A stretch of DNA of 64,000 nt from Candidatus Peribacteraceae bacterium (GTDB taxonomy: Bacteria > Patescibacteriota > Gracilibacteria > Peribacterales > Peribacteraceae): positions 2,278 through 66,277 of the forward strand of contig JAGOTD010000005.1 in the NCBI GenBank assembly GCA_018061945.1, written 5' to 3'. Made by a program: the position numbers and the translations under genes. Positions 2,358 through 58,562 of this stretch are shown in pieces. How positions within the stretch are numbered: the first letter of the stretch is position 1; every line of letters starts with the position of its first letter. Below the pieces are notes generated by a model that saw only the letters and a program-made list of their open reading frames with translations, made no database searches and had not been told where the DNA came from.

Positions 2358-3224
2358 ATGCGGCATGGTTTTCTTCTCATCGACAAGCCCGTTGGGCCGA
2401 CAAGCCACGATATAGTGGCGCAGCTTCGGCGTCTGTTGAGTGAGCAAAAGATGGGACACTTGGGCACACTCGATCCGCAGGCGAGCGGACTTTTGGTTGT
2501 GGCAGTTGGCAGCAAAGCGCTCAAGGTCGTCGATTTGTTTAAGACACTCACGAAAGAATACATCGCAGAAGTGCATTTGGGAGCCGAGAGCACAACCTAC
2601 GATTTCGAAGGCAGTATTACACAAACACAACTCAAGCCAGGTTGGCAGCAGCCAGCCGATAGCTCGCGTATTCAAACACTCATTGCCGAAAGATTCCTCG
2701 GGAAAATAGAGCAGCGTCCGCCGCAGTTTTCCGCGCTCAACATAAGTGGCAAGCGCGCGTACGAATTGGCACGCGAAGGCAAGCAGGTAGAAATGCCGCT
2801 GCGCGAAGTGCAGATTTCGCAATGCGATATTCTGTCGTACAACTATCCAAAATTATCGCTACAAGTTGCGTGTAGTTCTGGCACCTATATACGTTCGCTC
2901 GCGCACGATATTGGTATCGCTCTTCGGTGTGGCGGTTATCTCTCCGCTCTTCGTCGGACGAAAGTAGGGAAGTGGAAAATCGAGAAAGCCATTGCTCCCA
3001 AAGATGCTGTGTGGACATCGGTTGTTCCTCTCAAAGAAATTTTGTCTGATTTTCCTCGGCGCGATTTATCGGCAGACGAATGGAAAGAAATCGACTTTGG
3101 TCGCACGATTAAAGGTGATGTTGGAACTGATTCACTTATCGGTTGGGTCGATGATCTGCCAGTTGTGATCTTGGAAGCGAGCAGCAAGCAAGCAGGAATG
3201 CTGAAGGCGAGGAAGGTGTTGTAG
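2358..3224 (+). CDS. truB: tRNA pseudouridine(55) synthase TruB
   Basis: The N-terminus GFLLIDKPVGPTSHDIV and the catalytic motif GHLGTLDPQASGLL are both present. Length is 288 aa. Confidence 0.9.
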   Translation: MRHGFLLIDKPVGPTSHDIVAQLRRLLSEQKMGHLGTLDPQASGLLVVAVGSKALKVVDLFKTLTKEYIAEVHLGAESTTYDFEGSITQTQLKPGWQQPADSSRIQTLIAERFLGKIEQRPPQFSALNISGKRAYELAREGKQVEMPLREVQISQCDILSYNYPKLSLQVACSSGTYIRSLAHDIGIALRCGGYLSALRRTKVGKWKIEKAIAPKDAVWTSVVPLKEILSDFPRRDLSADEWKEIDFGRTIKGDVGTDSLIGWVDDLPVVILEASSKQAGMLKARKVL

Positions 3225-3227
3225 AAA

Positions 3228-3266
3228 GGACTCAGATGACTCAAAAGACTCAGAGGACTCAAAGGA
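3228..3266. repeat. Word array, family B (GACTCA 9-nt words), single arm
   Basis: ggactcagat gactcaaaa gactcagag gactcaaag ga: four tandem degenerate 9-mers. Confidence 0.85.
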
Positions 3267-3370
3267 TAGTAGATGCAAATATAAAAAGGGAGCGGGATGC
3301 TTCCCGCGGTCGACTTCTTATGCAAAGAAGTCTTGTCTTATCAGCTATTGATTGAAGACATGTTATGTAA

Positions 3371-17773: not shown

Positions 17774-18526
17774 TTATCCGCGCGCTACCGTTAAGCCAAT
17801 CACTCGCTTGATTCCGGCTTTTTTCAATGCCGCAGCACAGGCTTGCATAGTGGCGCCGGTTGTAAGGAGATCATCGACAAGAATAACAGTTGCCGGAGCG
17901 GGAAAGGACTCAGATGATTCAAGTGACTCAGAGGACTCAAAAGACTCAGAGGATATGTTTGCTTGAGAAGTTAAGAGTTTTTCTGATGAAGATCGAAGTG
18001 ATCTCGCATGTATTTGAAAAGCATTATTCACTGCCTTGAGGCGCTGCTCTCGGTTACGCCACGCTTGGTGTCCTGTTGGGCGGGTGCGCACAATAAGCTG
18101 CTCTACCGGCCAGTTTTTCTCTCGGCCGATATCGGCGGCCAGTAGCTGCGCTTGATTGAATCCGCGCTGAAAACGGCGCGTCCAATGCAGAGGAATTGGA
18201 CACAACACAGGCGTTGATTCACCTGGTAGCATCAGCAAATTTGACGCAGCATTGATCATGAGAAAACTGAGCATATGGCTAAGTGCTGGAATGCGTTTGT
18301 ACTTGAGAGTCCGTATCGCTTTGCGCAGCAGTGGCGATGTCTCGTAATCCGCAGCCGCAATGACGGTCTCAAGATCAGTGCATCCCATTTTTCGCAGTTG
18401 CGATTGGGTAAGGTAGATCGATTCCAGATTGGCGAGACTCGTCCACTCGTCCTCTGTTATCCACTGCCCTTCGCCACCATCCAGTGAGGGGATGGGAAAG
18501 AGGAGGTCGAGGAGCGGTTTGAGCAT
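17774..18526 (-). CDS. comF: ComF-family phosphoribosyltransferase-fold protein
   Basis: N-terminus is MLKPLLDLLFP and the C-terminal PRPP motif is VILVDDLLTTGATM. The start was set at the ATG at 18526; the track start at 18589 would overlap the upstream gene by 50 nt. Confidence 0.85.
   Translation of the reverse strand: MLKPLLDLLFPIPSLDGGEGQWITEDEWTSLANLESIYLTQSQLRKMGCTDLETVIAAADYETSPLLRKAIRTLKYKRIPALSHMLSFLMINAASNLLMLPGESTPVLCPIPLHWTRRFQRGFNQAQLLAADIGREKNWPVEQLIVRTRPTGHQAWRNREQRLKAVNNAFQIHARSLRSSSEKLLTSQANISSESFESSESLESSESFPAPATVILVDDLLTTGATMQACAAALKKAGIKRVIGLTVARG
17906..17953. repeat. Family B word array embedded in-frame in comF
   Basis: ggactcagatgattcaagtgactcagaggactcaaaagactcagagga is read on the minus strand as SSESFESSESLESSES. 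Confidence 0.85.
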
Positions 18527-18539
18527 GCGAAAAAGGAGA

Positions 18540-19649
18540 TCAGCGAGCTGCTTGTGCAGTTGCAATTTTTGTTTTGATAGTCGATACATCTATCACGCGG
18601 TCGTATCTGCGTCCGGCAATGAGCAGTGTCGGAATTTTAATGGTACGGATGCGCTTCTCCACAATAAGTCGCTGATCAGCCAGGCTTGATTGCACGTCCG
18701 GTGAATGGGCGAGGGCTGCAATTCGGCTGACCTCGTCTGCGGTATAGCCGATTTCCTGCAATAAGTGCTGCAACTGTGTCGTTGCATCGGTTTTTGTCAT
18801 GCCCATGACAAAACGCGACTGCAAGTCTGCATCTTCTTCTGCTGCCGGCTGGGCAAAAATCTTTTCAATGAGCTGCCAGTCCGCTGCGACGGATGTATCG
18901 CCTCGTGTCAGCGGTACGCGCTTGGTGGCCTCGATATACGATGCCATTTCGTATGAATGCGGGAACTTGTAGCTACCGCTGTCCGTGGATGGAATCGGAT
19001 AGAGGAGATAGGAGATATTCAGCGCATTCATTGCATCGGCATCCATCATATTTTTGGTGAGTTTTTTACAGAATCTACAGCTGGGATCGATAATCTCCAG
19101 CGCGTACGGTTTTGCCCTGTCTTCTGCGTGGAAGAAGGTAGCTGTCGGGCTCAGATAGTCCTGTGCATTCCAGTTTTTCAGCCGGTCAGGAATGCGCGAG
19201 AGTGTGGTGCCAAGCCGGACAAACGGTCCTGCGGCCCATTCTGTGATACGTCGCTCCTGTACGGCTTGCGCAATGCCCAGCGTCGATTGAGTCACGCCGC
19301 ACGCCTCGCCCGACAGCGAGCACGACTCGGCACTCTGCGGATTGCAGGTGTCATACACCCACAAATTGAGTCCGGCATTGGCAACGTAGACAAGGCTCCA
19401 GATACTGAGTGCCACGAAAAGAAACGAAAGCCAGTCGATCCACTTGTTAAGGAACCTGGCCAGACGCGGATGGGTGAAGATCAGCTTTCCGACCAGTTTG
19501 CCTTTCATTTCCTCGCCGAAGCTGATGTCGCAGGGGCGCAGTGTGATTCTGCGCAGGACACAGTGCCATGCTTTGCCGGCCAGCGGACGGAAGGAGGCGG
19601 AGAAAATCGCAATAATGCCGAAGACGATGAACGTGGCAATGCAGAACAT
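18540..19649 (-). CDS. Membrane-anchored DsbA/thioredoxin-fold thiol:disulfide oxidoreductase
   Basis: There are two N-terminal TM helices and a Cys-rich loop. The redox motif is CRFC within DPSCRFCKKL. A cis-Pro segment (KIPTLLI) is present. Confidence 0.7.
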   Translation of the reverse strand: MFCIATFIVFGIIAIFSASFRPLAGKAWHCVLRRITLRPCDISFGEEMKGKLVGKLIFTHPRLARFLNKWIDWLSFLFVALSIWSLVYVANAGLNLWVYDTCNPQSAESCSLSGEACGVTQSTLGIAQAVQERRITEWAAGPFVRLGTTLSRIPDRLKNWNAQDYLSPTATFFHAEDRAKPYALEIIDPSCRFCKKLTKNMMDADAMNALNISYLLYPIPSTDSGSYKFPHSYEMASYIEATKRVPLTRGDTSVAADWQLIEKIFAQPAAEEDADLQSRFVMGMTKTDATTQLQHLLQEIGYTADEVSRIAALAHSPDVQSSLADQRLIVEKRIRTIKIPTLLIAGRRYDRVIDVSTIKTKIATAQAAR

Positions 19650-24794: not shown

Positions 24795-24885
24795 CCTTTG
24801 AGTCCCCTGAGTCATCTGAGTCCTTCCTCTGGTTCTTCTGCATCGTCCCATTCGGGCCTGAGGGCCTCAGGGCCTCGAACGGCTG
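24795..24885. repeat. Composite element: family B right arm plus GGGCCTGAGGGC module
   Basis: cctttgagtcccctgagtcatctgagtcc ... cccattcgggcctgagggcctcagggcctcgaacggctg. A second copy lies at 49036-49108. Confidence 0.8.
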
Positions 24886-24918
24886 GTTCTTCTGGTTCCT
24901 CTTCATTATACTTTCCCC

Positions 24919-26721
24919 ATGTCTACCCTTTCTGATCACGAGAAGAAGCTGTTTGAAATCCGTCACTCGCTTGCCCACGTTTTGGCGCAGGCAGTACTCA
25001 AGCTGTGGCCAAAAACGCAGATTACTATTGGTCCGCCGATTGAAACGGGGTGTTACTACGATTTCAAATTTGCTGAACCTATTTCCGATGCAGATTTTGG
25101 ATCCATCGAAAAAGAAATGCGCAAAATTATCAATGTCGGTCAGACATTTAGCTCGCAGACTCTCAGCATCGAAGACGCTATTGCTTTCTGGAAAGAGCGC
25201 GGACAGCCATTCAAAGTCGAGCTCATCGAAGATTTGGCCAAGGCAGGGGAGACGAGTGTCACCAACTACGCAAACGTGGCAGCCGATGGCACCGAAATGT
25301 TTGTGGATCTATGCCGAGGCGGACACGTCGAAAACACCAAGCAGATTCCAGCCGACGGTTTCAAGCTTGCATCACTCGCCGGTTCGTACTGGCGTGGCGA
25401 TGAAAAGCGCGACGCACTCACGCGTATTTACGTGACTGCTTTCGAATCCAAAGAAAAACTAAAGGAATACCAAGTAATGCTCGAGGAAGCCAAAAAGCGT
25501 GATCATCGCAAGCTTGGCAAAGAGCTCGATCTCTTCACATTTAGCGATCTTGTCGGTTCTGGTTTGCCACTGTGGACACCACGCGGCACGTTGCTGCGCA
25601 ACTTGCTCGATGACTACGTGTGGGAGCTACGCCAAGCCAAAGGTTACGAGCGCGTGACTATCCCGCACATCACCAAAAAAGAATTGTACGAAACCAGCGG
25701 CCACTGGCAGAAATTTTCCGATGAGCTGTTTCGCATCACCACTCGCGAAGGTCACGAGTTTGCCATGAAGCCGATGAACTGTCCGCATCACACGCAGATT
25801 TACGGCCGTATTCCGCACAGTTACAAAGACATGCCGCAGCGCTACGCCGAAACAACCACCTGCTATCGTGATGAACAAACCGGTGAGCTGCACGGACTTT
25901 CGCGTGTGCGCGCCTTTACCCAAGACGATGCACACGTGTTCTGTCGCCCGACTCAATCCAAAGATGAGATCCTCAAAATCTGGGAAATTGTCGATACGTT
26001 TTATCCAACCGTTGGTTTTGGCAAACTGCGTGTGCGCCTATCGCTGCATGATCCAAAAAATTTCAATAAGTACTTGGGCACACCAGAAATGTGGAAGAAA
26101 GCCGAGCAAGAAATTCGCGATATTGCAGTCGAGCGCAAAGCTGATTTCTTCGAGGCACCAGGCGAGGCTGCTTTCTACGGTCCGAAAGTCGACTTCATTG
26201 CCCGCGATTCCATTGGTCGCGAGTGGCAGGTGGCGACCATCCAGCTCGATATCAACATGCCCGAGCGCTTCGATCTTTCATGCATCAATGAGCAAGGCGA
26301 AAAAGAACGGATCGTGATGATCCATGCTGCCATCATGGGTTCGCTCGAACGTTTCCTTTCCATCTTCATCGAACATCATGCAGGACTTTTCCCGCTGTGG
26401 GCTGCACCAACGCAGATTGCAATCATTCCTGTAGCGCCGGTGCACGAAGAGTATGCGAGGTCACTTGAAAAAGAATTGATGAGCCACGGTCTGCGCGTTG
26501 CGTTCTACGACGCCAGCGATACCCTCGGTAAGCGCGTGCGCGACGGCGAAAAGCAGAAAATTCCGTATCTGCTTGTCATCGGTGATAAAGAAGTAGAAAG
26601 CAAGTCCGTGTCTGTCCGCAATGTGAAAACGAAGAATCAGGTAACGGTCACGAAGGTCGAGTTTATCGAGAAGACACTGGAAGATGTGAAAGGGCGCAAG
26701 CTGGAGGGGGCGATTGGATAG
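24919..26721 (+). CDS. thrS: Threonine--tRNA ligase (no N-terminal TGS domain)
   Basis: It starts at the editing-domain segment IRHSLAHVLAQA. Class II motifs and the anticodon-binding domain are present. Length is 600 aa. Confidence 0.9.
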   Translation: MSTLSDHEKKLFEIRHSLAHVLAQAVLKLWPKTQITIGPPIETGCYYDFKFAEPISDADFGSIEKEMRKIINVGQTFSSQTLSIEDAIAFWKERGQPFKVELIEDLAKAGETSVTNYANVAADGTEMFVDLCRGGHVENTKQIPADGFKLASLAGSYWRGDEKRDALTRIYVTAFESKEKLKEYQVMLEEAKKRDHRKLGKELDLFTFSDLVGSGLPLWTPRGTLLRNLLDDYVWELRQAKGYERVTIPHITKKELYETSGHWQKFSDELFRITTREGHEFAMKPMNCPHHTQIYGRIPHSYKDMPQRYAETTTCYRDEQTGELHGLSRVRAFTQDDAHVFCRPTQSKDEILKIWEIVDTFYPTVGFGKLRVRLSLHDPKNFNKYLGTPEMWKKAEQEIRDIAVERKADFFEAPGEAAFYGPKVDFIARDSIGREWQVATIQLDINMPERFDLSCINEQGEKERIVMIHAAIMGSLERFLSIFIEHHAGLFPLWAAPTQIAIIPVAPVHEEYARSLEKELMSHGLRVAFYDASDTLGKRVRDGEKQKIPYLLVIGDKEVESKSVSVRNVKTKNQVTVTKVEFIEKTLEDVKGRKLEGAIG

Positions 26722-26726
26722 GCGAA

Positions 26727-26823
26727 TAAGTAAGGTAGGTACGGTAGGTATCGTAAGTATGGTAGGTATTGTTATGAAGCCTACCTTACATACCTTACCT
26801 ACAATACATACCTAACCTACCTG
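26727..26823. repeat. Word-array palindrome, family C (GGTAGGTA words)
   Basis: aagtaaggtaggtacggtaggtatcgtaagtatggtaggtat - spacer - cctaccttacataccttacctacaatacatacctaacctacc. It lies between convergent genes. Confidence 0.85.
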
Positions 26824-28971: not shown

Positions 28972-29056
28972 TAGGTACGGTATGTAAGGTAGGTCTGGTA
29001 GGTAAAGTAAGTAATACCTACTGTACCTACTATACTTACATTACCTACCTTACCTC
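28972..29056. repeat. Word-array palindrome, family C
   Basis: taggtacggtatgtaaggtaggtctggtaggtaaagtaagtaa - tacctactgtacctactatacttacattacctaccttacc. Confidence 0.85.
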
Positions 29057-29127
29057 CTGCCCCGATTACTCTTTGACTCATCGCCCGGTATGTCTTACTC
29101 TTCCGGCGTTCTTCCTCTCCTCGCTTC

Positions 29128-29585: not shown

Positions 29586-29676
29586 AAGTAAGTAAGGTAG
29601 GTACGGTACGTATAGTAGGTCAGGTAAGTATTCAATTACCTACTATACTTACCTTACTTACAATACCTACATTACC
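29586..29676. repeat. Word-array palindrome, family C
   Basis: aagtaagtaaggtaggtacggtacgtatagtaggtcaggtaagta - ttcaa - ttacctactatacttaccttacttacaatacctacattacc. Confidence 0.85.
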
Positions 29677-36209: not shown

Positions 36210-37601
36210 ATGCCCCTCTCACTCGCTGACATACAGGCCGCAACACACGCTATAGAAAGCCATGAACGGCTTCTTATCATCCCGCATGCCAATGTGGATC
36301 CGGATGGTATCAGTAGTGCTTTGGCGTGTTACCAGCTGTTTAAGGCACTTGGCAAAGACTGTACGGTTATTTGTCCGGATACGCCGCCGGAGTCGCTGCA
36401 GTTTATGCCCGGGTTCGAGAACCTTTCGACCGAAATAGAGGAAGGCCAGAACTTTATTATCACGCTCGATACCAGTAGTGGCGTAGAGGTCGATAAGCTG
36501 CGCTATACCGTGGAGGACAATAAGGTGAACATTATCGTTGTTCCCAAGAAAGGCCGTTTTAAGAAGCAGAACGTTACTATTCTCGATACCGGCAGCGCGT
36601 ACGACTTGATTGTTGTGGTCGATACCGCCGATATGGCGTTACTTGGTTCCATCTATCAGCAACATGTCGATCTGTTTTCGGAAACGCCGATTCTCAACGT
36701 CGATCATCACATCAGTAATACCGGCTACGGACAATTGCGACTTATCGATCCTACGTGCGCCTCGGCAACCGAGGTTCTGTACAATTGGTTTACGAACAAT
36801 GCGCAGTGGAAGAACATGCTCACGCCAGATATTGCGACCCTGCTTCTTACCGGTCTCATCACCGATACGCGCAGTTTCCAGAATCCGAATACGACGCCAC
36901 GTTCTTTGGAAGTGGCAGCCGAACTTTTGGATCTCGGTGCACGTCAGCAGGAAATTATTCAGCACGTGTACAAGACCAAGCCGCTCACTACACTCAAAAT
37001 CTGGGGTCGCGCGCTCAATCGTATCCAAATGGATCCGGAGGCTCGCATCGTCTGGTCATCGGTGAGCAAAGAAGACTTGGACGAAATGGGTGCTAATAGT
37101 AAAGAAACAGCCGGTATTCTCGACGAGCTTATTTCCACCATTCCCGATGCCGATGTGCACGTGCTGTTTACCGAAGTAGAGAGTGGGGGACTTAAGGCCA
37201 GCTTGCGCTCATCACCAGCGATCGATGTCAGTAAGGCTGCCGCTCGTACGTATGGCGGTGGCGGACATAGCCGCGCGTCTGGGCTCAAGGTAAAGGGCTA
37301 CAATAACTTTCAGCTGCAAGTGATCGAATGTGTGCAGAAACTGAAGGAAGAAATGCAGCGTCAGCGCGACGAAGCCAATGCGCCGCTCCATCCAACTGGT
37401 GGCGATATTCCCAAAGTGAGCGTCCCAGCTGCTGCTCCAGCATCTACTCTCGCACCAAAAACTCCAGTACCAGAAGCGAAGCCAACTACTCCTGCTGCTC
37501 AGCCATCAATCGAACAGAAGACCGGTTCCACTGATGTGCTCGATTCCATTTCACCGAGTGAAAAGACGGGCGGGACGGATATTGTGCAAACGTTAAGTTA
37601 A
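36210..37601 (+). CDS. DHH/DHHA1 phosphoesterase (NrnA-like) with a Pro/Thr-rich C-terminal tail
   Basis: IIPHANVDPDGISSALA, DHHISN and the GGGH segment are present. The tail of about 90 aa is low-complexity. Confidence 0.85.
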   Translation: MPLSLADIQAATHAIESHERLLIIPHANVDPDGISSALACYQLFKALGKDCTVICPDTPPESLQFMPGFENLSTEIEEGQNFIITLDTSSGVEVDKLRYTVEDNKVNIIVVPKKGRFKKQNVTILDTGSAYDLIVVVDTADMALLGSIYQQHVDLFSETPILNVDHHISNTGYGQLRLIDPTCASATEVLYNWFTNNAQWKNMLTPDIATLLLTGLITDTRSFQNPNTTPRSLEVAAELLDLGARQQEIIQHVYKTKPLTTLKIWGRALNRIQMDPEARIVWSSVSKEDLDEMGANSKETAGILDELISTIPDADVHVLFTEVESGGLKASLRSSPAIDVSKAAARTYGGGGHSRASGLKVKGYNNFQLQVIECVQKLKEEMQRQRDEANAPLHPTGGDIPKVSVPAAAPASTLAPKTPVPEAKPTTPAAQPSIEQKTGSTDVLDSISPSEKTGGTDIVQTLS

Positions 37602-37768
37602 GGACTCAGGCGTTAAACTAGGACTCAGAGGAAGCAGAAGACTCAGAGGAATGTTGCGATGATTGTCACGCCTAAGGTGGAAGAAATGATAATGACTCAT
37701 GGGAAAGATTCCCGTGATACTTCCAATCCTCTGAGTCCTTTGTTTCCTCTGAGTCTTCTGAGTCCTTT
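37602..37768. repeat. Family B word-array inverted pair
   Basis: The left arm (37602-37652) and right arm (37727-37768) are reverse complements word for word, separated by a spacer of about 75 nt. Confidence 0.85.
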
Positions 37769-37827
37769 CATGTTTTCCTTTCCCATTCTCTGTGCTATTC
37801 TAACCGCGCTCGTTTTTTACGTACTCT

Positions 37828-40074
37828 ATGCGCCTCGTTCAGGTAGCGAAGATCTTAGGCATGACAGGACAAGAATTGCGACTCGAACTTATGAAGGTCG
37901 ATTTCGGCATAAAGCCGACCGATCGTGAAGTTCCGCAGAATCTTGCCATCGGTATTATCCGCTTCATTGCGAATAAAAAAGGCTTGAAGATTGATTTCGA
38001 TGCGCTCATGGCAGGGCCAGATGGAAGTGCCGACGCAAAAGAAAAAGATGATGACGGATTGGAATCTTCAGAAAAAGATGAGGCAGACGCCGATGCGCCG
38101 CAAGCTATTTCACCCAAACAGGTCGAAAATTTGAATGTGCTGCGCAAGCTCTCGCTCGAAGGTGTGTCGCAAGCTGCGATTGCCAAGCAGCAGCAGGTGA
38201 TATCCAAAGAAAAGAAGCTCACGAAAGAAGAATTGGATCAGCGTAAGACCGAAAGCAAGATTTTCCAGAAACTGGAAAAGAAAGCGCCAACGTCCACCCA
38301 TCAGGAGCAGATCAAGCAAAAGCAGGGGACGGTGATGTTGCCAGAACAAATCTCGGTGAAAGAATTTGCCGAAAAGACCGGAGTGCAGGTGCCAAAAGTG
38401 ATTCAGTCGCTCATGAAAAACGGTATTCTGGCCAACATCAATCAGCAGATCGATTTCGATACCGCATCCATCGTTGCATCCGAACTCGGCGTCACAGTGC
38501 AGAAAGAAGTGGCCGATGTATCGGTGGAAGCTCTCATCAAAAACGATTTAGCAACTCTTATCAAAGACGAACCAGAAACACTGCTCCCTCGTCCGCCCAT
38601 TGTCACGGTCATGGGCCACGTCGACCACGGTAAGACGGCTATTTTGGATGCGATTCGCTCCACAAACGTTGTTGCCAAAGAAGCGGGTGGTATTACCCAG
38701 CACATTGGTGCGTATCAGGTACAACACGGCGATAAACTTGTTACATTCCTCGATACCCCTGGTCACGAGGCTTTTACGGCTATGCGTGCACGTGGAGCGC
38801 AGGTAACAGATATCGCCATCCTCGTTGTCTCTGCCGAAGAAGGTGTTAAACCAACGACCATCGAAGCGATCAACCACGCAAAAGATGCGGGTGTTCCGAT
38901 TATTGTCGCCATCAATAAAATCGATAAACCGAATGCGGATATCGAACGAGTGAAAGGCGAACTTGCCGGTCACGGACTGCAAGCCGAAGGATGGGGGGGA
39001 ACAGTTCCCATGATTCCGTGTAGCGCTGTAACGAAAGCTGGCATTCCTGAACTCCTCGAAACAGTGTTGCTGGTAGCCGAGCTCGAAGAGCTCAAAGCCA
39101 ATCCCAATCGTCCAGCCATTGCCACAGTCATCGAAAGTCATTTGGACAAATCGCATGGTCCGCTCGTGAGCTTGATTGTGAATACCGGAACGCTGCGTGT
39201 TGGCGACCTTATTGCATCCGGTAGCTCCAATGGCAAAGTAAAAGTATTGATGGACGCTGCGGGTAAGCGTATCAAAGACGTTATGCCGTCTGGCCCGGTC
39301 CTCATGGCTGGTCTCGATACCACTCCACGTGTCGGTGATATTTTGCAGGTGTTTAAAACCGAGAAAGAACTGACTGCATTCTTGGAGGCGTATCATTTTT
39401 CCAAAGCGCACGAAACCAAGCATGGCTTTGCCGACCTTGTCTCACGTTTGACCGAAGGCAAACTCACCCAGCTCAAGTTGGTGCTAAAAGCCGATGCTCA
39501 AGGTTCGCTCGAATCCATTTCCGAAGCACTTCGTAAACTTACGACCACTCTCGTTCAGCCGAAAATTATTCACAGTGCTATCGGTGCTATTTCTGAAAGT
39601 GATGTCATGATGGCGTCTGCTTCGCAGGGTATCGTTGTCGGCTTTAACGTAGACGCGGCATCAACTGTCATGAAGACGGCCGATCGTGAAGGGGTGAAAG
39701 TAAAGCAGTACGATATTATTTACCGCTTACTGGAGGACATGGAGTTGCTACTCCAGGGTCTTATCGAGCCGGTTGAAGAAGAGAAGGTTACCGGTCACTT
39801 GGAAGTGCGCGGCGTGTTCCTTACCAAAAAGAGCGAGCAGATTATCGGAGGAAAAGTTATCGATGGTTACTTAAAACGTTTCCCATTCCGCCTGATGCGA
39901 AATGGTGAGCAGATCGGTACCGGGCGCATTACGTCGCTTAAGAATATCGATAAAGAAATCAAGGAAGCCAAAGAGGGGAGCGAGTGTGGTATGCGTGTCC
40001 AGACTTCTGCAAACATCGAGCTTGGCGATATTCTGGAGACCTTCACCAAAGAGTACAACAAAGCAGCTGCATAG
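37828..40074 (+). CDS. infB: Translation initiation factor IF-2
   Basis: The G-domain motifs [21 protein letters not shown] and NKID are present. Confidence 0.95.
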
Positions 40075-45662: not shown

Positions 45663-47480
45663 ATGAATATCCGGAATTTCTGCATTATCGCCCATATCGA
45701 TCACGGAAAATCCACCTTGTCCGATCGTATGATCGAAATAACCAGTACCGTTGCCATGCGCGATATGAAGGAGCAGCTGCTCGATTCGATGGATTTAGAG
45801 CGTGAACGCGGCATTACTATCAAACTGCAGCCCGTACGAATGACGTACAAAGGACATCAGCTGAACCTCATCGATACCCCTGGTCATACTGACTTCCGTT
45901 ACGAAGTGAGTCGTTCTTTGGCGGCGTGCGAAGGTGCTATTTTGCTGGTCGATGCGTCGCAGGGCATTCAAGCCCAGACGCTTGCAGTGCTCTATATGGC
46001 CATGGAGCATGATCTCAAGATTATTCCGGTTCTTAACAAAATCGATCTGCCGGCAGCCGATGTGCCACGTGTGAGTGCCGAGGTTATCAAAATGCTTGGC
46101 TGTAAGCAGGAAGACATACTGGCAATTTCGGCCAAAGAGGGGACAGGTGTTGCAGCAGTGCTCGATGCGGTGATTGAGCGTATTTCCGATCCGCGTAAAA
46201 CCATCTCCACCGAAGGCAATGCTCGCGCACTTATTTTTGATGCAGTCATGGACGACTATCGCGGAGCGGTAACATACATTCGTGTTGTTGAAGGATCATT
46301 TAAAAAAGGCCAGATTGTGCATTTGCTCGGATCAAAAGTGAAATTTGAAGTGCAGGATGTCGGCCATTTCTCGCCGAAATACATTTCCGATGACAGTATT
46401 AACGACGGCGAAATCGGCTACATCGTGACCGGTCTGAAAGACGTTGGGCAGGCGCGCGTGGGTGATACTATCGCAGCGCAGGAATTTTCGCCGGCACTTC
46501 CCGGCTACACCAAAGTTCAGCCGATGGTGTTTGCCGGCATGTACCCAACCGACGCCGAAGAGTACCCGAAGCTGCGAACATCACTCGAAAAATTGTCGCT
46601 CAACGATGCGGCTCTCGAAATCGGTTACGAGCAAAACGTGGCTCTGGGAAACGGTTTTCGTGTAGGATTTCTGGGGCTTCTGCACATGGATATTATCCAA
46701 GAACGTTTGGAGCGCCAGTACGATTGCGACTTGATTATCACGGCGCCAAGCGTGCTGTACGAAGTACAGCTCAAGGCAGCGCGACCGGCGAGCGTGGTGC
46801 GCGCCAGTCTGCTGAAAATCGAAGATCCAACGATTGCACTTCTCAGTAACCCGGCCGACTTTCCGGATCCAACGTACATCGATGAAATTCGTGAGCCATG
46901 GATCAAGCTGGAGGTCGTGTGTAGGCAACAGGACATTGGTCCAACCATGCAACTCGTCCAGGAGCGACGCGGTATATATCTCTCGCTTGAGTACATCGAT
47001 GCCGATCGTGCGATTTTGCGGTTTGAAGTGCCGCTCAACAGCATCGTCTTGGACTTTTTTGATAAGCTCAAATCGTTTACTTCCGGTTACGCATCACTAA
47101 GCTACGAGCACTTGGGCTACAGGGCAGGGGATTTGGTGAAGATGGATGTTCTCCTTCTGGGCGAGCCTGCCGATGCACTCAGTACGATCGTTCATCGCAG
47201 CGAAGCGCACGATACGGGCGCGATTATTTGTAAGCAGCTGAAAGAAGTGATTCCTAAAGCTCAGTTTCAAATTCCGATTCAGGCTTCCATTGGGTCCAAA
47301 GTCGTTGCACGCGAAACAATTGCCGCTCTGCGTAAAGATGTGACCGGTTACTTGTATGGTGGCGACATTACGCGCAAAAATAAGTTGCTCGATAAGCAGA
47401 AGAAGGGCAAGAAACGTATGAAGCAAATGGGAAAAGTAACGCTCACGCAGGAATCGTTTTTGGCAGTACTTAAAAGATAA
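45663..47480 (+). CDS. lepA: Elongation factor 4 (LepA)
   Basis: IRNFCIIAHIDHGKSTL, DTPGH and NKID are present. The LepA C-terminal domain is also present. Confidence 0.95.
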   Translation: MNIRNFCIIAHIDHGKSTLSDRMIEITSTVAMRDMKEQLLDSMDLERERGITIKLQPVRMTYKGHQLNLIDTPGHTDFRYEVSRSLAACEGAILLVDASQGIQAQTLAVLYMAMEHDLKIIPVLNKIDLPAADVPRVSAEVIKMLGCKQEDILAISAKEGTGVAAVLDAVIERISDPRKTISTEGNARALIFDAVMDDYRGAVTYIRVVEGSFKKGQIVHLLGSKVKFEVQDVGHFSPKYISDDSINDGEIGYIVTGLKDVGQARVGDTIAAQEFSPALPGYTKVQPMVFAGMYPTDAEEYPKLRTSLEKLSLNDAALEIGYEQNVALGNGFRVGFLGLLHMDIIQERLERQYDCDLIITAPSVLYEVQLKAARPASVVRASLLKIEDPTIALLSNPADFPDPTYIDEIREPWIKLEVVCRQQDIGPTMQLVQERRGIYLSLEYIDADRAILRFEVPLNSIVLDFFDKLKSFTSGYASLSYEHLGYRAGDLVKMDVLLLGEPADALSTIVHRSEAHDTGAIICKQLKEVIPKAQFQIPIQASIGSKVVARETIAALRKDVTGYLYGGDITRKNKLLDKQKKGKKRMKQMGKVTLTQESFLAVLKR

Positions 47481-47547
47481 CGAAGTACGAATTGCGAATC
47501 ACGAATTACGACCTTTCGTAATTCGTGATTCGTGCCTCGTAATTCGC
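47481..47547. repeat. Word-array palindrome, family A
   Basis: cgaagtacgaattgcgaatcacgaattacga - ccttt - cgtaattcgtgattcgtgcctcgtaattcg. It lies between convergent genes. Confidence 0.85.
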
Positions 47548-48912: not shown

Positions 48913-49112
48913 AGAAGACTCAAAGGACTCAGATGACTCAAAAGACTCAAAGGAATGTTGATACATGCATTACCGTATTCCTCAGAGATAATTATGAGAG
49001 TACAAACCAAATAATGCTTGAGTCTGCATAGCTTTCCTTTGAGTCGTCTGAGTCATTTGCTTCCTCCCATTCTGGGCCTGAGGGCACATCAGGGCCTCGA
49101 ACGGCTGAGTCC
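48913..49112. repeat. Family B inverted pair plus GGGCCTGAGGGC module
   Basis: The left arm is at 48913-48957 and the right arm at 49036-49060. These are followed by gggcctgagggcacatcagggcctcgaacggctg at 49074-49108. Confidence 0.85.
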
Positions 49113-53902: not shown

Positions 53903-54454
53903 ATGCCTGATCAATTCTTTCTCGATTTTCTGATTCTCTTCAAGCGGCAAACAGAGGAAATGTGGGTGAATAAGGAATTGGAAAGAGATATCTACGGCTT
54001 TCAGGTGCAAGCCGGTACCAAGTGGTTGCCTGGTTTATCGCCCGAACAAATACGTGCGTACGAACACGATATCGGCTGCGTATTTCCGCATGAGCTGCGA
54101 CAATTTCTCTCGGTGATGAATGGGCTGGATCGCGAGTCGATCAATATCTACGGCATGTCGGGCGAGCCATTTCTTACCAAGCACACGGTCTATGCGTATC
54201 CGCGCGATTTTGAGCTGATCCACGGTCAAATCACGTCGCTTCAGAAATCAGCGCAAGAACTGGCGCCCCTATTAACAGACCTGCGTATTTCGGCAGCCAC
54301 CGTTCGTTTTGTTCCTCTGTATATGGGTAGTTATGTTGTGTGTGCCGATGATCCTTCGTACAATCCGGTTATTTTCTGCGATGGATCTTTTGTAGAGCTG
54401 GTCAGCGAAACATTGAAAGAAGCTTTGGAGTTACGTTTCCTTCCGTCAGTTTAA
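53903..54454 (+). CDS. SMI1/KNR4 (SUKH-1) family protein
   Basis: LSPEQIRAYEHDIGCVFPHELRQFLSVMNG is the typical SUKH N-terminal signature. Confidence 0.65.
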   Translation: MPDQFFLDFLILFKRQTEEMWVNKELERDIYGFQVQAGTKWLPGLSPEQIRAYEHDIGCVFPHELRQFLSVMNGLDRESINIYGMSGEPFLTKHTVYAYPRDFELIHGQITSLQKSAQELAPLLTDLRISAATVRFVPLYMGSYVVCADDPSYNPVIFCDGSFVELVSETLKEALELRFLPSV

Positions 54455-55527
54455 TCTGCTGTTTCCAGTGTTGTTCGCAGTTCCCGCATCGCTTCCAGTG
54501 TCACTCCGATATTCTGCAAGCACGCAATCGTTTCGCCGTAGCGTTCACCGATTTTGAAGAGATGATGCAGGTAGCTTTTTTTGTGATTGCGGCTGGTGGG
54601 AGCAGGGGAGAGGGGATCGATAACCGAATCATCCTGCAAAAACTCAGCGCGACGAATACGCAGCTTTGTGCCGTCTTTCAGCCAAATATTGCCATGGCGT
54701 GCTTCGCGCATGGGCGAGACGCAATCGAACATATCGATGCCACGTTTTACCGCTTCGCGATGCTGATGCAGTTCCCCAACTCCCATCAAATATCGTGGTT
54801 TATCAGTTGGAAGTAACGGACAGACGTAATCGAGAACGGAAAACATATCCTCCTCCGTTTCGCCAACAGCCAGACCGCCGATTGCGTAGCCATCAAAACC
54901 AATCGCCATCAATTCCTCCGCACACTTCTGGCGCAGATCGCGCTCGAGACCGCCTTGGACGATACCGAAGAGAAATTTCTGCTTACCCGGATGCGTCTGC
55001 AGCAATTGCTCGTGTGTTTGCTTGCAAACCTTGGCCCAGCGTAAGGTTCGGTCAACTGCTTTTATTTGATCGGCTTTTGGAGCGGTAGATGGCGGACATT
55101 CGTCGAAACACATAATGATATCGGCACCGAGCTTGTGCTGAATGGTGATCGATTCTTTGGGTCCTAGGAAGATAGGTGCGCCACTTCGGTGATTGCGAAA
55201 CTGCACGCCTTCGTCGGTGATCGATCGAATCTTGCTGAGCGAAAATACTTGGTAGCCGCCAGAATCGGTGAGGATCGGCTTTGGCCAATGGATGAATTCG
55301 TGGAGTCCACCGGCACGCTCCACAACATTCTCACCCGGATGAATATGCAGATGATACGTATTGCACAGCAGGGCTTGGGCGCCCAGTGCATGCAAATCGT
55401 CGAACGTAATGCCTTTCATGGCACCAGCCGTTGCAACCGGAAAGAAAAACGGGGTTTCGATGCTGCCATGCGCGGTTTCAATGACCCCGCGTCGGCCGAG
55501 GGATGATTGACGTTTGAGTGTGAACAT
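54451..55527 (-). CDS. tgt: tRNA-guanine transglycosylase
   Basis: TPFFFPVAT, DSGGYQVFS, GGLAVGE and the C-terminal zinc segment are present. Confidence 0.9.
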   Translation of the reverse strand: MFTLKRQSSLGRRGVIETAHGSIETPFFFPVATAGAMKGITFDDLHALGAQALLCNTYHLHIHPGENVVERAGGLHEFIHWPKPILTDSGGYQVFSLSKIRSITDEGVQFRNHRSGAPIFLGPKESITIQHKLGADIIMCFDECPPSTAPKADQIKAVDRTLRWAKVCKQTHEQLLQTHPGKQKFLFGIVQGGLERDLRQKCAEELMAIGFDGYAIGGLAVGETEEDMFSVLDYVCPLLPTDKPRYLMGVGELHQHREAVKRGIDMFDCVSPMREARHGNIWLKDGTKLRIRRAEFLQDDSVIDPLSPAPTSRNHKKSYLHHLFKIGERYGETIACLQNIGVTLEAMRELRTTLETAD

Positions 55528-55541
55528 GAGGTTAGTATAAA

Positions 55542-55581
55542 GGAATCAGACGACTCAGACGACTCAAAAGACTCAAAGGAG
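55542..55581. repeat. Family B word array, single arm
   Basis: ggaatcagac gactcagac gactcaaaa gactcaaag ga. Confidence 0.85.
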
Positions 55582-57020: not shown

Positions 57021-57056
57021 GCGAATCACGAATTATGAAGTACGAATTACGAATTT
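57021..57056. repeat. Family A word array, single arm
   Basis: gcgaatcacgaattatgaagtacgaattacgaattt. Confidence 0.8.
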
Positions 57057-58493: not shown

Positions 58494-58562
58494 CGAATCA
58501 CGAGGTACGAATTACGAAGTACGACAATTCGTACTTCGTAATTCGAGATTCGTACTTCGCGC
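58494..58562. repeat. Word-array palindrome, family A
   Basis: cgaatcacgaggtacgaattacgaagtacga - caa - ttcgtacttcgtaattcgagattcgtacttcgcg. It lies between divergent genes. Confidence 0.85.

Follow-up and report, generated by a model that had tools for sequence, protein, structure and literature searches.

The spacer between a DHH/NrnA-like gene and infB of a Candidatus Peribacteraceae bacterium contains two arrays of degenerate 9-nt words beginning with GACTCA, which face each other as an inverted pair. Further arrays of the same kind lie elsewhere in the 64,000-nt stretch of DNA that was analysed (hereafter, the window), which raised the question of what kind of element they form and whether they are more than a local repeat. 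An earlier note on the window had listed six array sites, and all six were present at the coordinates claimed. The motif GACTCARR matched 33 times in the window, whereas 100 shuffles averaged 8.56 matches and never exceeded 18; the motif is clustered at 3229-3264, 17907-17951, 24796-24822 (reverse orientation), 37603-37648 / 37729-37764, 48917-48952 / 49037-49063 and 55543-55578. Tandem Repeats Finder assigned these arrays a period of 9 or 18.

In the pair upstream of infB (pair 1), the left, purine-rich arm (37598-37656, + strand) consists of TAAG, GACTCAGGC, a 10-nt filler, GACTCAGAG, GAAGCAGAA, GACTCAGAG and the inner edge GAATGTTG, and its TAA serves as stop codon for the DHH/NrnA-like gene that precedes the arm (36210-37601). 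The loop (37657-37722, + strand), which belongs to a loop family termed L1, contains an inner hairpin, CAUGGGAAAGAUUCCCGUG. The right arm (37723-37769, - strand; pyrimidine-rich on the + strand) reads, outside-in on the - strand, GACTCAGAA, GACTCAGAG, GAAACAAAG, GACTCAGAG and GATTGG, and infB starts 59 nt downstream, at 37828. The inner 7-9-bp hairpin of the loop (37696-37716; alignment columns 120-140) is kept in all five copies, with some two-sided changes (GC to AU or GU) in a sample too small for a covariation call. Pair 2 has a left arm (48913-48960, + strand) of GACTCAAAG, GACTCAGAT, GACTCAAAA and GACTCAAAG followed by GAATGTTG, a loop of family L3 (48961-49032) that is ~88% identical to a copy at C9:268468 (contig 9) with homology ending at the arm ends, and a right arm of three words (49033-49066, - strand), which on that strand are GAAGCAAAT, GACTCAGAC and GACTCAAAG. 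The sequence GGAATGTTG forms the inner edge of both left arms in the window, and GAATGTTG forms the inner edge of five arms genome-wide.

The other four sites carry single arms. A solo four-word arm (3225-3267, + strand) begins 4 nt past the stop codon of the gene at 2358-3224, and a second one (55543-55581, + strand; GAATCAGAC, GACTCAGAC, GACTCAAAA, GACTCAAAG) has its outer end ~15-24 nt from the start of a divergent gene (54451-55527, - strand). A further solo arm lies 1 nt past the stop codon of the RNase III gene (C7, ~60.4-61.1 kb). A five-word arm (17903-17954, + strand) sits in frame inside a comF-like gene (17774-18589, - strand), in which it encodes SESFESSESLESSES directly before the phosphoribosyltransferase motif. 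The array reported at 24795-24824 does exist, but it is only part of a longer composite pyrimidine arm extending to ~24905 (24795-24905, - strand; upstream of a gene starting at 24919), which combines three GACTCA words with GAACCAGAR and GATGCAGAA words and is broken by a 34-nt GC-rich palindrome at 24846-24880. This palindrome, GCCGTTCGAGGCCCTGAGGCCCTCAGGCCCGAATGGG, was found in or beside word arrays at 24846-24880 and 49069-49100 and also on a related metagenome contig, and it looks like a small REP-type insert.

The host genome comprises 1.37 Mb in 15 contigs, with 48% G+C. With arms defined as runs of two or more GACTCA words that keep a 9- or 18-nt register, 91 were found on 12 of the 15 contigs; therefore, local duplication within this region, which the earlier note had named as a possible refutation, does not account for the arrays. 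A strict criterion yielded 23 inverted pairs, and a sensitive partner search found a complementary partner at most 300 nt away for 49 arms and none for the remaining 42. In total, there are ~65 elements, ~25 of them inverted pairs and ~40 solo arms. A triple-word pattern matched 47 times in this genome, four times in the sister species (G001) and four times in one other genus, and had no match in 38 other relatives; the reversed-pattern control likewise had none. Given the census and these counts, the GACTCA arrays (Family B) are real, genome-wide and nearly species-specific. When metagenomes were scanned with the triple-word pattern, most of the 80 loci screened were unrelated to this genome; five contigs matched it, three of them over several kb (66-73% identity), and one of the five has an inverted pair. 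The elements matched no Rfam family at either gathering or E-value thresholds, and these repeats are not mentioned in the literature on Peribacteria genomes.

Family B is one of several word families in the genome, which contains 452 arrays of period 7-9 with many different words; 346 of the 452 are intergenic, compared with an expectation of 17.7%, and 242 of 771 spacers hold at least one. Such numbers would also fit plain STRR-type simple repeats, arising by in-place slippage of a 9-nt unit with neither mobility nor a partner protein, in which case the inverted pairs would be incidental or result from local strand-switch copying. The variation in heptamer number among Coxiella strains (PMC4990558) likewise fits slippage. 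The anatomy of the arms, however, does not: exactly four words were found in 65 of the 91 arms, and when GACTCARRR is written as D and GAARCARAR as G, the same word orders recur (DDDD, 20 arms; DGDD, 19; DDDG, 12; DDGD, 5). The 65 four-word arms share the profile (A)AR-[G A N N C A R A R]x4-GA, with positions 1, 2, 5 and 6 of the word conserved in 100% of these arms, A at position 8 in 94-98%, and about half A and half G at the R positions. Family B arms are thus fixed modules rather than free microsatellites. The skeleton, GA..CA.A., was present in 12 of the 24 genera of the family, with NN words particular to each genus, but was found in none of 16 other families; the reversed-pattern control was again zero.

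An invariant skeleton with nearly free intervening positions, kept across 12 genera in which the NN positions vary, is what might be expected of host-selected binding sites, that is, of arrays in which a DNA- or RNA-binding protein (not necessarily of the PF05635 family discussed below) reads GA..CA.A. at 9-nt phase and which label gene boundaries, whether to organise the nucleoid, to punctuate transcripts or for regulation. The placement of the arms fits such a role as well. The outer arm end lies at a median distance of 19 nt from a gene boundary (91 arms), and 54 of the 91 outer ends lie within 45 nt of one, at 40 stops and 14 starts. The inner ends face the spacer, with a gene boundary at a median of 169 nt and within 45 nt in only 2 of 90 cases. 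In 24 arms, TAA and one to three purines immediately precede the first word; the element termini are TAAGGACTC...GAGTCCTTA, the right termini mirroring the TAA ends on the left, so that the element carries an inward-reading stop codon from either side. The polarity was strict: read on either strand, the purine arm came first in 23 pairs and second in none. Where a spacer holds more than one array, of whatever word family, the order on the + strand was purine-then-pyrimidine in 59 cases and the reverse in none, and in 11 of these 59 spacers the arrays are non-complementary. The fixed polarity at gene boundaries, seen even in non-complementary arms, favours binding sites, and the 23:0 polarity argues against slippage, as does the number of pairs itself, ~10 times the ~2 that we estimate under independent placement of 91 arms at ~2,100 gene boundaries.

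All 23 pairs fold, with energies of -42 to -98 kcal/mol. The hairpin predicted earlier for 37602-37768 reached -84.2 kcal/mol (z = -9.2), with a stem of 36 bp and a loop of 66 nt in pair 1, and that predicted for 48913-49060 reached -56.3 kcal/mol (z = -4.7); in neither case did any shuffle fold as well. The right arm had also been described as the word-for-word reverse complement of the left, and this description had to be given up, since the variant word GAAGCA/GAAACA is often slot-shifted (DGDD versus DDDG) and ~14% of the aligned arm positions within pairs are mismatched. The mismatches on the transcribed strand showed no asymmetry (32 G.U versus 31 A.C), both strands of the pairs fold equally well, and, the shared word core apart, nothing points to RNA pairing being under selection. 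The ~40 partnerless arms and the 11 spacers with non-complementary arrays further indicate that pairing is not the whole story.

Long and stable hairpins, 22 of 23 pairs in co-directional or convergent spacers, and a stop codon before 40 of the 54 boundary-close arms would suit bidirectional terminators or REP/BIME-like hairpins that stabilise 3' ends. However, a hairpin-plus-T-tract scan of 37400-38000 found no such site, separate canonical terminators adjoin some arms, 14 arms lie at start codons and at least two within ORFs, and ~40 are unpaired. We consider this explanation very unlikely, in agreement with the earlier statement that the arrays are not simply terminators.

We also compared the loops after masking the arms and found four loop families that recur at unrelated loci. 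Homologs of the pair 1 loop were present at C2:2458, C2:3322, C2:4868, C7:255351 and C9:162180. The two window loops are unrelated to each other, as had been claimed, but each has paralogous copies elsewhere in the genome. Between pair 2 and C9:268468, the one pair of copies aligned in full, the identity of ~88% spans arms plus loop, with similarity from AAGACTCA to GTTTCCTC and unrelated flanks; no target-site duplication was seen in this paralogous pair. With respect to MITE features, inverted termini are present, and no transposase-bearing relative was found.

The suggestion that the 9-nt period allows arrays to sit in frame inside genes was borne out by the comF-like gene, with SESFESSESLESSES, and by carA, in which a complete four-word module with the usual flanks is in frame and encodes DSEDSKDSKDSE, a segment that falls in an alignment gap relative to CarA and human CPS1. 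At least two arms are truly inside ORFs; most other seeming in-gene arms were artefacts of a simple ORF caller.

Comparison with the sister species revealed rapid turnover. Between conserved flanks, its nrnA-infB spacer contains, instead of pair 1, a 9-nt hairpin of the GAACCAGAG type whose loop is unrelated; the pair 2 site is empty; and an AGAACGT heptamer hairpin occupies the position of the solo arm at 55543. The element at C2:235165 is conserved, with a homologous loop and arm words that differ in number and type. These spacer comparisons indicate that elements come and go or are exchanged at fixed sites, with arms changing faster than loops. The loop and spacer comparisons show that entire elements have been copied to new loci and that their replacement or loss is rapid. 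Slippage would explain how the arm words of an orthologous element vary in number and type while its loop is conserved, but not how identical arm-plus-loop units arise at unrelated loci or how carA came to contain an intact four-word module, typical flanks included; we therefore regard it as unlikely. Host-selected binding sites seem to us quite improbable too, because arrays are rapidly lost or replaced by unrelated word families at orthologous sites and also occur within ORFs and 23S rRNA, and because no candidate regulator was identified.

According to the earlier note, no named class of elements has this architecture. This view does not hold, because tandem-heptamer inverted pairs have been published for Xanthomonas (PMC4692102) and the stem of the S23p intervening sequence (IVS) of Coxiella is similar (PMC4990558); moreover, arms of this kind enclose PF05635 genes here. 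The heptamer repeats are GGGAATC in Xanthomonas and GGGGAYT in Nostoc (cyanobacterial STRR), and each Xanthomonas genome has 70-75 convergent inverted heptamer pairs, whose single or paired state is conserved between species whereas their length is variable; no link to PF05635 is drawn in that paper (PMC4692102). Like these heptamers, Family B consists of intergenic tandem short words; unlike them, it has a 9-nt unit that is not G-rich and has no G-quadruplex potential, its arms are fixed at four words, and its words differ within the genus. When assessed as STRR, it is intergenic and lineage-specific, but it does not have a 7-nt unit with variable copy number. Short words of the STRR or heptamer type between bacterial genes have been catalogued since 1990, and to our knowledge no origin or function has been assigned to them. 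Family B is a 9-nt, fixed-length addition to such word-array hairpins (STRR and the Xanthomonas heptamer pairs). The Rickettsia palindromic elements of Ogata et al. (2000) are reportedly dispersed palindromes that lie in frame in genes and are translated as a tolerated surface segment; they are said to be unique sequences of ~100-150 bp and not word arrays, and in contrast to them, only the solo 36-nt arm occurs in ORFs here. The TAACTGA words of marine Beggiatoaceae are abundant, lineage-specific and intergenic, with an unexplained function, but they are direct heptamers and, unlike Family B, almost never inverted (PMC4679880).

The REP/REPIN-RAYT systems share with these elements dispersed hairpin doublets at gene ends, several families per genome and a small gene between inverted repeat copies, but differ in that the gene enclosed here encodes a four-helix-bundle protein and the arms have an internal period. 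RAYTs act on single-stranded hairpins, and the genome has four PF01797 ORFs, so that Family B might be thought to consist of REPIN-like elements mobilised by Y1 (IS200/RAYT-type) transposases. The true RAYT-like genes of this genome, however, have different, GC-rich flanks: three of the four Y1 genes lie between GC-rich inverted repeats particular to them, the main word arrays flank none of the four, and no Y1 gene flank has GACTCA or related 9-nt words. Mobilisation by Y1 transposases is accordingly the reading to which we give the least credence. The four Y1 ORFs (IS200/RAYT-like) lie at C7:5771-6097, C10:16724-16912, C9:143846-144130 and C7:316102-316314, and the inverted repeats of three of them are perfect or near-perfect and 490-630 nt apart. 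Motifs of the type '(T)CCGCAG + hairpin', related to the Y1 flanks, occur just inside many Family B solo arms. The Y1 ORFs with their GC-rich repeats and these related motifs indicate that a classical RAYT/REP system coexists with the word arrays.

Two further candidates were rejected. The 16S rRNA tail (C4, near 25738) reads GGAACATCTCCTTACC, which indicates that the anti-Shine-Dalgarno sequence CCTCC has become TCTCC, and Shine-Dalgarno-like motifs were not enriched upstream of predicted start codons; mimicry of Shine-Dalgarno sequences by the purine arms is therefore irrelevant. No match to a reverse transcriptase (RVT_1) was found in the genome, which speaks against a diversity-generating retroelement or a retro-copying route; against the former also stand the weak Avd score and the skeleton, whose A residues do not vary, whereas adenine-specific variation is the mark of such retroelements.

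Other word families form hairpins nearby. Almost loopless heptamer hairpins (CGAATTA / TCGTAAT, ~4.5 units per arm) lie at 2241-2304, 47480-47546, 57022-57055 and 58494-58559. The CGAATTA family is the most abundant word family of the genome (unit AATTACG, 111 Tandem Repeats Finder rows); its words are found on both sides of the PF05635 gene at C9:157520 as well, and within the 23S rRNA gene. A third 9-nt family (GTAGGTAAG / TACCTACCT) forms inverted pairs at 26730-26822, 29015-29059 and 29588-29676, and its words also flank the PF05635 gene at C2:242845.

The genome encodes five PF05635 proteins, and four of the five genes lie between inverted tandem-word arms; the fifth sits between non-tandem inverted repeats. 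The tandem-word arms of these cassettes correspond to four main families of dispersed words, namely the heptamer CGAATTA/ACGAAGT; GTAGGTAAG; GAGGAGAGG; and the 9-nt words GAACCAGAG/GAAACAGAC/GATGCAGAG together with one GACTCAGAG. Where purine-first array pairs had a loop of 400-450 nt, the only genes found inside were PF05635 genes. Of 61 genomes of the family, 52 have PF05635, in as many as 24 copies, and nearly all of the 33 PF05635 loci examined had periodic inverted arms beside the ORF. At C4:35051, sister-family arms surround a PF05635 gene whose protein matches TIGR02436 ('four helix bundle protein') and scores weakly against the Avd model of diversity-generating retroelements (30 bits versus a cut-off of 80). 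The positional ortholog of this C4 cassette in the sister species has true Family B arms around its PF05635 gene, reading GACTCAGAA GACTCAGAG GAAGCAGAG GACTCAGAG … and, on the opposite strand, GACTCAAAG GAAACAAAA GACTCAGAA GACTCAAAG.

The PF05635 proteins whose arms have 9-nt words come from four genera and group in a single clade (SH-aLRT 99), and the arm-period label changes four times on the PF05635 tree, compared with 7.5 times when shuffled, a value as low being reached in 1 of 200 shuffles. Among 18 relatives, from each of which 40-100 kb was sampled, array density correlated with PF05635 copy number (Spearman 0.72, p = 7e-4, uncorrected for phylogeny); the median was 28 arrays per 100 kb in genomes with PF05635 and 6 in those without, and two PF05635-positive relatives were array-poor. 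Several independent lines, namely architecture, phylogeny and copy number, thus tie Family B to S23p/PF05635 cassettes of the IVS type.

The loops of Family B, 40-150 nt long, contain no ORF, and comparison of gene-less loops with cassette interiors revealed no similarity beyond that of shuffles, which indicates that the gene-less elements are not recognisable deletion derivatives and share only the arms. The 9-nt cassette of this genome has GAACCAGAG-type rather than GACTCA arms, and the sister species has a GACTCA cassette and few dispersed GACTCA arrays. Given this mismatch between cassette and dispersed families in both species, a simple master-and-copies relation fails, and the word family of the cassette arms does not predict the abundant family of a genome. 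Causality may also run the other way, hairpin loops being simply a preferred location of PF05635 genes.

Word hairpins also occur in the ribosomal RNA. The 23S rRNA gene of this genome (C2:269775-273892) is 4118 nt long, compared with a 2925-position model, with ~1.2 kb of insertions that include two heptamer hairpins and one 9-nt array. The word hairpins at C2:270981-271046 and 272254-317 belong to families other than Family B; one of the heptamer hairpins lies within a 195-nt insertion at a helix tip, and another heptamer hairpin is found immediately downstream of the gene. Family B was not found in a 23S rRNA helix, its arms being intergenic or within ORFs. Short ORF-less insertions are common at IVS sites in CPR 23S rRNA genes (PMC11270868). 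The S23p IVS of Coxiella has a 28-bp terminal-repeat stem and tandem GACAGAT heptamers, strain-variable in number, just 5' of the S23p ORF, and it is excised by RNase III, which cuts at the first repeat (PMC4990558). The RNase III gene (rnc) is also present in the genome studied here. Family B and the S23p IVS of Coxiella burnetii and Leptospira (PMC4990558) are alike in their terminal inverted repeats, which form a stem of ~28-36 bp around a loop, in their short tandem words and in the purine-rich 5' arm; in addition, full copies carry a PF05635/S23p gene, and word hairpins also occur in the genome's own 23S rRNA gene. In contrast to the S23p IVS, Family B is gene-less, lies between or inside protein-coding genes, and has 9-nt rather than 7-nt words and ~65 copies.

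We therefore propose, at about an even chance of being right, that Family B represents lineage-specific, gene-less, IVS-like foldback repeats that are related to the PF05635 cassettes and would probably be cut by RNase III if transcribed. Each element would consist of a purine-rich four-word arm, a loop of 40-150 nt and a complementary pyrimidine-rich arm, and would occupy the spacer, beginning at one gene's stop codon and ending shortly before the next gene. The gene-less elements would be relatives of the cassettes in which similar arms surround a PF05635 gene (S23p, four-helix-bundle, Avd-like), and those cassettes would be the same kind of element as the S23p-bearing IVS of 23S rRNA. In a transcript of either strand, the arms could pair into a stem of ~36 bp, which would probably be a substrate of the genome's RNase III, and cleavage would excise the element or split the transcript harmlessly. 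Harmless cleavage would allow the elements to be tolerated between cistrons, in rRNA helices and, as an in-frame solo arm, in proteins.

A broader hypothesis, which we put forward tentatively and regard as possible but rather improbable, is that PF05635 proteins and phased-word arms form one cis/trans, self-propagating system of 'RNA-excisable' elements. We know of no catalytic activity of PF05635 proteins. Under this hypothesis, each PF05635 subfamily would recognise its own word skeleton, here GA..CA.A. at 9-nt phase, and the five AR-GA junctions per arm would fit a pentameric protein. The element would colonise spacers, rRNA helices and even ORFs, and the STRR-type heptamer and nonamer repeats of cyanobacteria, Xanthomonas and others would be its footprints.

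Family B may reveal the source of the unexplained short tandem repeats in bacterial spacers. It provides a clean case, with a fixed module length, an invariant skeleton, strict polarity, turnover between sister species and in-frame arms in conserved enzymes. In practical terms, gene callers will extend or truncate ORFs at Family B arms. If the tie to PF05635 is causal, these repeats would represent selfish or regulatory elements of a new kind in the reduced genomes of CPR bacteria and would give PF05635 proteins a role beyond diversity-generating retroelements.
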